Source: an uncultured Rickettsiales bacterium (GTDB lineage: Bacteria > Pseudomonadota > Alphaproteobacteria > Micavibrionales > GCA-2720935). From it: 64,000 nt of DNA. Of this stretch, positions 31,674-32,768 are shown piece after piece. The notes under the pieces were generated by a model. It had not been told where the DNA came from. It made no database searches and worked only from the letters and a program-made list of their open reading frames with translations. Both the position numbers and the translations under genes were made by a program. The stretch lies in the NCBI GenBank assembly GCA_950054255.1, contig CATLOR010000002.1, positions 264,325 through 328,324 of the forward strand, given 5' to 3'. Every line of letters begins with the position of its first letter. Position 1 is the stretch's first letter.

Positions 31674-32192
31674 TTATAAACACCCCTTAGAGCGCATTGC
31701 TTGATAAGCCGCCCTAGGGACATAACGCCTTACCTCAGTTCGGCGCCCAAAACGTGACAACTCCTTCACAAAAGAAGATGAAATTTGACGACATTCTTCA
31801 CGCGTCATGAAATACACACTATCTAACTTAGGATCTAAGATCGCATTTTTTTGTGCCATATCAGCTTCCATATCGAAATCTGTCGTATTACGGATACCTC
31901 GTACAATTGTAACTTTATCTGATACCGAGCGAGCAAACTCAACTAAAAGGCCATCAAATGGAGCTACTTTTATGGGGACGGAAACACCTATCAACTCTTC
32001 ATTAATAGCCTCTTGAATAATTTGGACGCGCTCTTCTAGATTAAAAACGGGGTTTTTACCTTCATGCGTTGAGACTGCAATAATAACTTGGTCAAAAACT
32101 TGCGCGGCCCGTATCACAATATCTAAATGCCCTTTAGTGATAGGATCAAATGTTCCCGCATAGATTGCTGTCTTTTTTTCTCGACGCGCCAT
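31674..32192 (-). CDS. Divergent second phosphopantetheine adenylyltransferase-like protein (CoaD paralog)
   Basis: [23 protein letters not shown] and ISSSFVKE are retained; FEYE is changed to FDME and the C-terminus is Arg-rich. Confidence 0.88.
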   Translation of the reverse strand: MARREKKTAIYAGTFDPITKGHLDIVIRAAQVFDQVIIAVSTHEGKNPVFNLEERVQIIQEAINEELIGVSVPIKVAPFDGLLVEFARSVSDKVTIVRGIRNTTDFDMEADMAQKNAILDPKLDSVYFMTREECRQISSSFVKELSRFGRRTEVRRYVPRAAYQAMRSKGCL

Positions 32193-32258
32193 AGTATCTC
32201 CTTATATTTTCAATAAGAAGACTGTATTATTGCCATAAAATAAAAGCAAGGGAAATAT

Positions 32259-32768
32259 TTAGCCAGCTTTTTTCTTAAGAGCCACCAGAGAAGCTTCTGG
32301 AACAAACCCCGTTACATCGCCACCAAAAGTAAAAATCTCTTTTACAAACCGAGATGAAATATGCTGATATTTATTAGAAGCCATCATGAAAATAACTTCC
32401 ATCTCTGGGTTAAGGTGTTTATTCATCGCTGCCATTTGGTATTCATATTCAAAATCAGAAACAGTTCGCAGGCCGCGAACAATTGCAGTGGCGCCAACTT
32501 TTTGCGCGGTATTGATAAGAAGCCCATCAAAACCAATAACATCAATTGTAGCACGTACATCTATGATTTCTTGTTCAATAGCTTGACGAGCAACAGCAAC
32601 ACGTTGCTCCATCTCGAATAAAGGCCCTTTACCTGCATTCTCAGCAACAGCAACAACCAAATGATCAACAACACGCGCTCCGCGCTTTATGATGTCCATA
32701 TGACCCTTGGTAATAGGATCAAATGTCCCCGCATATAGACCGATAATTTTATCGCTCTTATTCGTCAT
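32259..32768 (-). CDS. coaD: Phosphopantetheine adenylyltransferase
   Basis: [25 protein letters not shown] and ISSRFVKEI; canonical position overlapping the end of gyrA. Confidence 0.96.

Follow-up and report, generated by a model that had tools for sequence, protein, structure and literature searches.

A diverged second coaD gene in tandem with the resident phosphopantetheine adenylyltransferase gene of an uncultured Rickettsiales bacterium

Phosphopantetheine adenylyltransferase (PPAT), the product of coaD, is an essential, usually single-copy and feedback-regulated enzyme, and it is an antibiotic target. The bacterial enzyme is a homo-hexamer arranged as a dimer of trimers. The subject of this study is a pair of coaD genes lying side by side in a stretch of 64,000 nucleotides (the window) of contig CATLOR010000002.1 from an uncultured Rickettsiales bacterium (assembly GCA_950054255.1). 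One of them, copy 1, is the resident canonical gene and the other, copy 2, has diverged from it. Much of what can be said about such a pair depends on what has been described for single PPATs. Mutagenesis of the H. pylori enzyme found H18, R88, R91 and the serines to be essential, with T10 and K42 contributing (PMC12784347). The subunits of the oligomer meet mainly through helices 4 and 5, and the charged pore at the centre, which influences activity, is lined by helix 4 (PMC12981448). The feedback inhibitor coenzyme A (CoA) places its adenylate and 3'-phosphate in the central channel (PMC9197168), and in H. pylori PPAT Tyr98 hydrogen-bonds a CoA phosphate (PMC12784347, PMC3764209), whereas the E. 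coli enzyme reportedly uses D95 and E99 instead of Tyr98 (PMC12784347). Broad mutational scanning of PPAT found the catalytic residues to be constrained and the positions of CoA regulation and subunit interface to be permissive, with complementation kept (bioRxiv 10.1101/163550).

A first-pass annotation of this DNA had reported two full-length coaD open reading frames 66 bp apart, and the two genes are indeed there, intact, on the minus strand and directly downstream of gyrA:

32259-32768, minus strand: coaD copy 1, 169 aa, the canonical PPAT resident at this locus; its start (ATG) and the end of gyrA share 11 nt
32193-32258, minus strand: spacer between copy 1 and copy 2, 66 bp, with an AAGGAG Shine-Dalgarno sequence 7 nt before the ATG of copy 2
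31674-32192, minus strand: coaD copy 2, 172 aa, a diverged PPAT paralogue with a basic C-terminal part

Functional divergence of copy 2 from copy 1 is well supported by the sequence comparisons reported here. As to its nature, we give about an even chance to the reading that copy 2 encodes a second, catalytically competent PPAT isozyme with changed regulation and/or assembly, probably derived by duplication in place.

Membership of the PPAT family is clear for both proteins. They share 43% identity over 167 residues (BLASTP, E = 2e-49), and both pass the 103.3-bit cut-off of the PPAT equivalog model TIGR01510, copy 1 with 185.4 bits and copy 2 with 164.7. The nearest PDB relatives of copy 1 are PPATs (E = 6e-44). 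On models of other HxGH nucleotidyltransferases (NadD/NMNAT, TagD, RfaE domain II and citrate lyase ligase) the best scores are 16-33 bits against cut-offs of 104-418, and the Citrate_ly_lig model gives 20.4 against a cut-off of 20.9. The fold predicted for copy 2 by AlphaFold2 from a 114-sequence alignment has a mean predicted local distance difference test score (pLDDT) of 94.2 and a predicted template modelling score (pTM) of 0.90, and when this model was compared with the PDB using Foldseek the top 50 matches were all PPATs (best E = 1.8e-16; template modelling score by target length 0.84-0.94). The N-terminus of the model runs straight into strand beta-1 (residues 8-13) with no signal peptide; export of copy 2, one of the roles suggested earlier, was rejected on these grounds.

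A second coaD is uncommon, in keeping with the earlier statement that the gene is normally single-copy. Only two coaD-type genes are present in this 1.99-Mb, 99.8%-complete genome, and of the 262 alphaproteobacterial genomes that gave a match, out of 301 searched, only 3 have two strong copies (E <= 1e-25): the window's own genome, one with 340 contigs and one that is 10% contaminated. Among 40 relatives of the same order no second high-scoring coaD was found. The sister genera, represented by genomes G001 and G002, have the order ssb-gyrA-coaD-DUF502 with a single coaD, followed in G002 by a tRNA-Lys gene as well, and a tblastn search of their loci for a remnant of copy 2 matched only that single coaD. 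Relatives of copy 2 with more than 50% identity were limited, among 5.8 billion word-indexed clusters, to P0002 (89%) and P0003 (64%). Both of these are in tandem, in the order ssb-gyrA-coaD1-coaD2, at loci L017 (a Logan assembly) and L013/L015 (L013-L016 being GCA_035092345.1 and related assemblies). When 1.84 billion representatives were searched exhaustively with HMMER, nothing lay between the cluster of copy 2 itself (367 bits) and ordinary PPATs of at most 48% identity, and a related-locus search of genome contigs gave no match. In the literature, no paper on tandem or paralogous bacterial coaD genes was found. As far as its sequence relatives tell, copy 2 stands apart as a small clade, known from three lineages of uncultured marine Rickettsiales-like bacteria and always in tandem.

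The active site of copy 2 has been retained. Both copies, and all three orthologues of copy 2, have the catalytic motif T15-x-G17-H18 and GTFDP, and the other features quoted in the first-pass annotation (the GK lysine, the difference in the contact region and the Arg-rich C-terminal end) were likewise found. In E. coli numbering, Y7, G9, F11, D12, P13, T15, G17, H18, R24, K42, R51, L73, L74, R88, G89, R91, D95, E99, N106 and S129 are kept in all three orthologues; T10 of copy 2 can be read directly from GTFDP, and ISSS (S128-S130) is kept too. The catalytic and substrate-site columns are invariant or nearly so in the 114-157 PPATs aligned.

The departures of copy 2 lie elsewhere. At 17 of 100 conserved columns copy 2 departs from the family in all three lineages (E. 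coli numbering):

Departures, first part: N39, L54, A83, A92, V93, Y98M, F100, Q101D, M105K
Departures, second part: T115S, F126Q, V135L, G140, D141E, S143R, F145Y, V150

The three helix 4 changes Y98M, Q101D and M105K have a frequency of 0 among 151 other PPATs. Position 98 is Tyr or Phe in 98% of those 151 sequences and Tyr in copy 1, whereas it is Met in all three copy 2 orthologues; this position contacts CoA and substrate and is not a catalytic residue. The contact region in which the two copies differ reads TDFDMEADMAQKN in copy 2. There are also insertions, of 2 residues in the helix 5-6 loop and of 1 residue before strand 4. Of the 37 conserved columns of helix 4 and helix 5-6, 13 depart, compared with 4 of 63 elsewhere (Fisher p = 5e-4; this value is optimistic, since the limits of these regions were set in part with the pattern already in view, though the first-pass annotation had flagged both). 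By analogy with the described enzymes, the altered surfaces of copy 2 are those that line the central channel and the subunit interfaces. Because the departures fall on elements known from the literature to serve regulation and oligomer contact, they suggest changed regulation or assembly with the same chemistry. The neofunctionalisation proposed earlier thus stands as far as divergence is concerned, and with regard to its kind, a change of feedback or assembly, including a hetero-hexamer, fits where the changes are located.

Copy 2 also has an unusually basic end. In all three orthologues the last 36 residues have a net charge of +6 to +8, near the top of the 157 PPATs compared, whose median is +2. 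The Arg-rich end noted earlier is therefore conserved as positive charge and only partly as sequence. The isoelectric point (pI) of the whole protein, 8.7-8.9, is within the ordinary PPAT range, and 7% of PPATs have a pI above 9. This charge bears on a very unlikely alternative, in which copy 2 would act on a new substrate, either another phospho-acceptor or 5'-triphosphate-A RNA in place of ATP, yielding CoA-capped RNA, with the RNA held by the added basic loop and tail. Capping of pppA-RNA with phosphopantetheine is already within the abilities of E. coli PPAT (PMC10761072), and the positive charge added by M105K, S143R and the Arg-rich loop insertion, in a C-terminal part that is nearly the most basic of 157 PPATs, would be consistent with such a role. 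However, the phosphopantetheine- and ATP-site residues are kept, the protein scores 165 bits on the PPAT equivalog and far under the cut-offs for NadD, NMNAT, TagD, RfaE and citrate lyase ligase, its pI is ordinary for a PPAT, and neither RNA-binding domains nor neighbour genes suggesting another pathway were found. The different acceptor raised in the first-pass annotation is less likely in particular because the phosphopantetheine-site residues that were checked, T10, K42, L73, L74, R88 and N106, are all kept.

Both copies are being maintained. Between the window and L017, the nonsynonymous (dN) and synonymous (dS) divergences are 0.058 and ~1.6 for copy 2 and 0.071 and ~0.9 for copy 1, the latter giving a dN/dS of ~0.08. 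Against L015, copy 2 (dN 0.31) has diverged more than copy 1 (dN 0.14), and dS is saturated. On these dN/dS values both copies are under strong purifying selection. Copy 2 has evolved ~2.2x faster than copy 1 over the deeper split, and this could be taken to mean that it is a redundant duplicate drifting to loss. That reading is hardly credible and is already contradicted by the data: the frame of copy 2 is intact in three lineages with saturated synonymous sites, its dN/dS is ~0.03-0.17, all invariant residues are kept, and between the window and L017 it has evolved no faster than copy 1. Pseudogenisation of copy 2 in relatives, which had been considered earlier, is not seen in any of the three lineages. 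The description of copy 2 as a diverged paralogue that keeps the catalytic motifs is instead reinforced by its retention in tandem in three lineages, by purifying selection and by the clustering of its fixed substitutions.

Copy 1 has changed as well. It has Thr77 in all three lineages, whereas Phe or Tyr is found here in 95% of other PPATs, in G001 and G002 and in copy 2 (F77 in both copy 2 and G002). It has also gained a Phe at position 136 in all three orthologues, and in the tree its stem (0.26) is longer than the G002 branch (0.08). These changes give thin hints of a division of labour or of co-adaptation with copy 2.

A second alternative, fairly unlikely in our view, is that copy 2 is a regulatory or asymmetric partner in a mixed hexamer with copy 1, the interface having been retuned for joint assembly. 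The changes in copy 2 cluster on elements of the oligomer interface (PMC12981448), the genes are adjacent with no terminator between them so that their products would be made together, and copy 1 itself changed after the split (F77T and the aromatic residue at 136 in all three lineages, with a stem longer than that of G002). Additionally, metagenomic polypeptides with two PPAT domains exist (P0131 at L054:366-1502, P0134 and P0136), and in P0131 the first domain has Lys for Tyr98 and the second is canonical. However, P0131 is known from a single 2.8-kb contig, and the complete active site of copy 2 would be needless in a purely regulatory subunit. It should also be noted that fresh duplicates of a homo-oligomer co-assemble by default, and divergence at the interface could equally serve to keep two hexamers separate.

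Returning to the isozyme reading, the mechanism that we infer begins with a tandem duplication of the resident coaD, after which copy 2 would have diverged faster than copy 1 with its active site frozen. Helix 4 and the helix 5-6 loop, which would supply the lining of the CoA-adenylate channel and the main subunit contacts, would have been rebuilt. Copy 2 would be co-transcribed with gyrA and copy 1, translated from its own strong ribosome-binding site, and would catalyse the reaction ATP + 4'-phosphopantetheine -> dephospho-CoA + pyrophosphate. The outcome would be an isozyme with the same chemistry and a different feedback sensitivity and/or assembly, working in a cell that apparently has no upstream CoA pathway and depends on PPAT as the entry step.

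The origin of copy 2 has to be considered alongside other divergent PPATs of the order. In several genomes there is a further PPAT-type gene, which is more divergent and scores 112-120 bits (copy 2: 165). In G001 it takes the form of a CoaE-PPAT fusion of 413 aa (L020:1401-2642, minus strand), with a dephospho-CoA kinase domain followed by a divergent PPAT domain, and it is present beside a canonical coaD. Such a fusion is functionally analogous to the eukaryotic bifunctional COASY, with the order of the domains reversed. Similar second-type genes are found at G008:C4:32295-32813 and G020:C119:1707-2225, and in G016 and G032 a second-type PPAT is the only PPAT found. In these proteins Y98 is replaced by Glu, and the helix 5-6 loop has 2-4 extra residues, after which come basic residues and Y-V-P/S. 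As they are the sole PPAT of G016 and G032 or are fused to CoaE elsewhere, loss of Y98 together with a loop insertion is compatible with a working PPAT.

The phylogeny suggested earlier as a means of separating duplication from xenology was run, as three maximum-likelihood (ML) trees and three approximately unbiased (AU) tests on 165-169 columns. It placed copy 1 within the family and did not settle the origin of copy 2. Copy 1 nests among the CoaDs of its family, sister to G002 (support 100/97) and then to G001, which makes it by its sequence the resident orthologue. In the ML trees copy 2 falls beyond the family clade, its stem (~1 change per site) arising in a poorly supported region. None of the arrangements put to the AU test was rejected, whether a clade of copy 1 and copy 2 (p = 0.18), the same clade plus G002 (p = 0.25), or copy 2 with the second-type PPATs (p = 0.24); with 165-169 columns, too few for the purpose, trees and AU tests reject no origin.

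On the other evidence we lean towards a tandem duplication of the resident coaD in place, on the stem of one genus, followed by faster divergence of copy 2 than of copy 1. This is favoured by the tandem position, the absence of mobile-element genes near the coaD pair, the GC and GC3 of copy 2, which equal those of copy 1 and of the genome, the lack of a donor, the identity to the family and the rare shared states. Copy 2 is 42-45% identical to the CoaDs of the family, compared with a mean of 38% and a maximum of 43% for the rest of the order, and the likeness of its C-terminal part to the family is 0.48-0.52 compared with 0.32. The signal from rare shared states is weak: in a set-based count two are shared with the family (f1) against 0-1 for 15 other groups, and a stricter version showed no preference for the family.

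It is possible, though doubtful, that copy 2 was instead acquired from another lineage or descends from a second-type PPAT of the kind fused to CoaE in G001. The free ML trees, with copy 2 outside the family clade, are consistent with this, as is the log-likelihood difference, which is smaller for a clade with the second-type PPATs (7.2, AU p = 0.24) than for the duplication tree (11.2). The two also share the loss of Y98 and the helix 5-6 loop insertion (2-4 residues, then [RK][RKQ]-Y-V/T-P). However, copy 2 is only 29-33% identical to second-type PPATs compared with 44-47% to CoaDs of the family, and the free tree does not join it with them. For an acquisition, no donor was found among the 1.84 billion representatives, the base composition of copy 2 is that of the genome, and landing exactly beside the resident homologue without a mobile-element gene would be improbable. 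A recent horizontal transfer was rejected: there is no compositional signal, and no donor was found in the 5.8 billion word-indexed clusters or the 1.84 billion exhaustively scored representatives.

The genes around the pair are as follows:

35575-36060, minus strand: ssb, preceding gyrA (Pfam)
32758-35511, minus strand: gyrA, 917 aa, the upstream gene in the same putative transcription unit (open reading frame list; Pfam on syntenic loci)
31634-31606, minus strand: promoter-like site TTGACC-17-TATGTT between copy 2 and tRNA-Lys (scan)
31480-31555, minus strand: tRNA-Lys(UUU), 118 bp downstream of copy 2 (ARAGORN)
30676-31437, minus strand: gene for a DUF502 membrane protein (PF04367, 119.8 bits), a conserved flanking gene

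recG lies on the opposite strand. The DUF502 gene has the same position in L013, G001 and G002, and tRNA-Lys(UUU) marks the ancestral right-hand border of the insertion point, G002 having coaD, the same tRNA and DUF502 without copy 2. A scan of the minus strand of the spacer found no terminator-like site and no listed promoter-like site, so it is likely from the sequence that gyrA, copy 1 and copy 2 are co-transcribed. Within the spacer, at 32215-32245 on the minus strand, lies a block of ~25 nt (AATATTTCCCTTGCTTTTATTTTATG) that has an almost identical counterpart in L017 and a partial one in L015; it holds a weak promoter-like arrangement, TTGCTT-17-TACAGT, under the threshold of the scanner. 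As a separate observation, the DUF502 protein of the window (253 aa, compared with 222-232 aa in L013, G001 and G002) has a terminal tail of ~40 residues rich in Lys, Ala, Thr and Pro.

The rest of the CoA pathway is incomplete in this 99.8%-complete genome. CoaE is present, but models that matched control genomes found no CoaC flavoprotein, no PanC, no pantothenate kinase (PanK) of type I or III, and no CoaBC beyond a CoaB-like match of 39 bits; the type II (eukaryote-like) PanK model matched no control genome, and the PanK negative covers types I and III. Canonical coaBC is missing from all three genera of the family, namely that of the window, G001 and G002. As the upstream PanK, CoaB, CoaC and PanC were not recognised, PPAT may be the entry step to CoA, with synthesis starting from salvaged 4'-phosphopantetheine, or else enzymes that escape recognition may be used. 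If PPAT is the gateway of the CoA supply, a second, differently tuned PPAT becomes biologically plausible, and the apparent gap between pantothenate and 4'-phosphopantetheine is relevant to the way in which CoA is acquired by streamlined or host-dependent Rickettsiales-like bacteria.

Outside the window, the 421-aa fusion protein encoded at L053:1510-2775 on the plus strand (~G000:C2:30145-31410) combines a CoaB-like DFP domain at its N-terminus (PF04127, 38 bits) with a class II aldolase/adducin-type domain (PF00596), whose score of 22.4 bits barely exceeds the cut-off. Similar weak CoaB-like matches occur in the coaBC-lacking genomes G001, G002 and G008. The fusion protein could be a non-orthologous replacement of CoaBC, or it could be unrelated.

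Several of these observations weigh against an isozyme with changed regulation that arose by duplication. Apart from the way in which the helix 4 and helix 5-6 regions were delimited, E134, a contact of the substrate's cysteamine end, has been replaced by Leu in the copy 2 orthologue of L015. It is the H. pylori enzyme that ties Y98 to CoA feedback, and D95 and E99, the residues reported for E. coli, are both kept in copy 2. G001 and G002 also have no coaBC and manage with one canonical coaD, so a salvage lifestyle alone does not require copy 2. The placement of copy 2 outside the family clade and the AU result for the second-type PPATs point the same way with regard to its origin. The pair would nevertheless offer a useful comparison, with an identical active site and one partner rebuilt at helix 4 and the helix 5-6 loop, for finding the residues that govern CoA feedback and the assembly of the hexamer. 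Should copy 2 prove to be no more than an isozyme, it adds modestly to what is known of the PPAT family.

In the PPAT of the alphaproteobacterium Methylocapsa palsarum, a single-copy homo-hexamer, a 5-residue surface loop insertion has been described as cold-adaptive, and helix 4 and the charge of the central pore as tuning activity (PMC12981448); the latter are the elements changed in copy 2. At the position of that insertion both copies have a loop after helix 3 that is ~5 residues longer than in E. coli or Acinetobacter. In the window this longer loop corresponds to 32560-32600 in copy 1 and 31980-32010 in copy 2. It is widespread in the order and in other alphaproteobacterial matches, and is evidently not specific to copy 2. 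The double-PPAT polypeptides P0131, P0134 and P0136 resemble the window pair in having two PPAT modules side by side, one of them without Y98 in P0131, but they are fused in one chain and, at 30-42% identity to copy 2, are unrelated to it in sequence. The second-type PPATs resemble copy 2 in that they, too, can accompany a canonical coaD as a second PPAT-type gene, have lost Y98 and carry an insertion in the helix 5-6 loop. However, they score 112-120 bits, share 29-33% identity with copy 2, frequently occur as CoaE fusions and form no tandem with coaD; the likeness could reflect either convergence or deep kinship. With the bacterial PPAT/CoaD itself (E. coli 1B6T, 1GN8 and 1H1T; TIGR01510; PF01467) copy 2 shares the fold, T/HxGH, K42, R88, R91, ISSS, D95/E99, N106 and the length class, and it differs in Y98M, Q101D, M105K, the loss of G140, the 2-residue loop insertion, the basic C-terminal part and its place as a second copy beside a canonical one.

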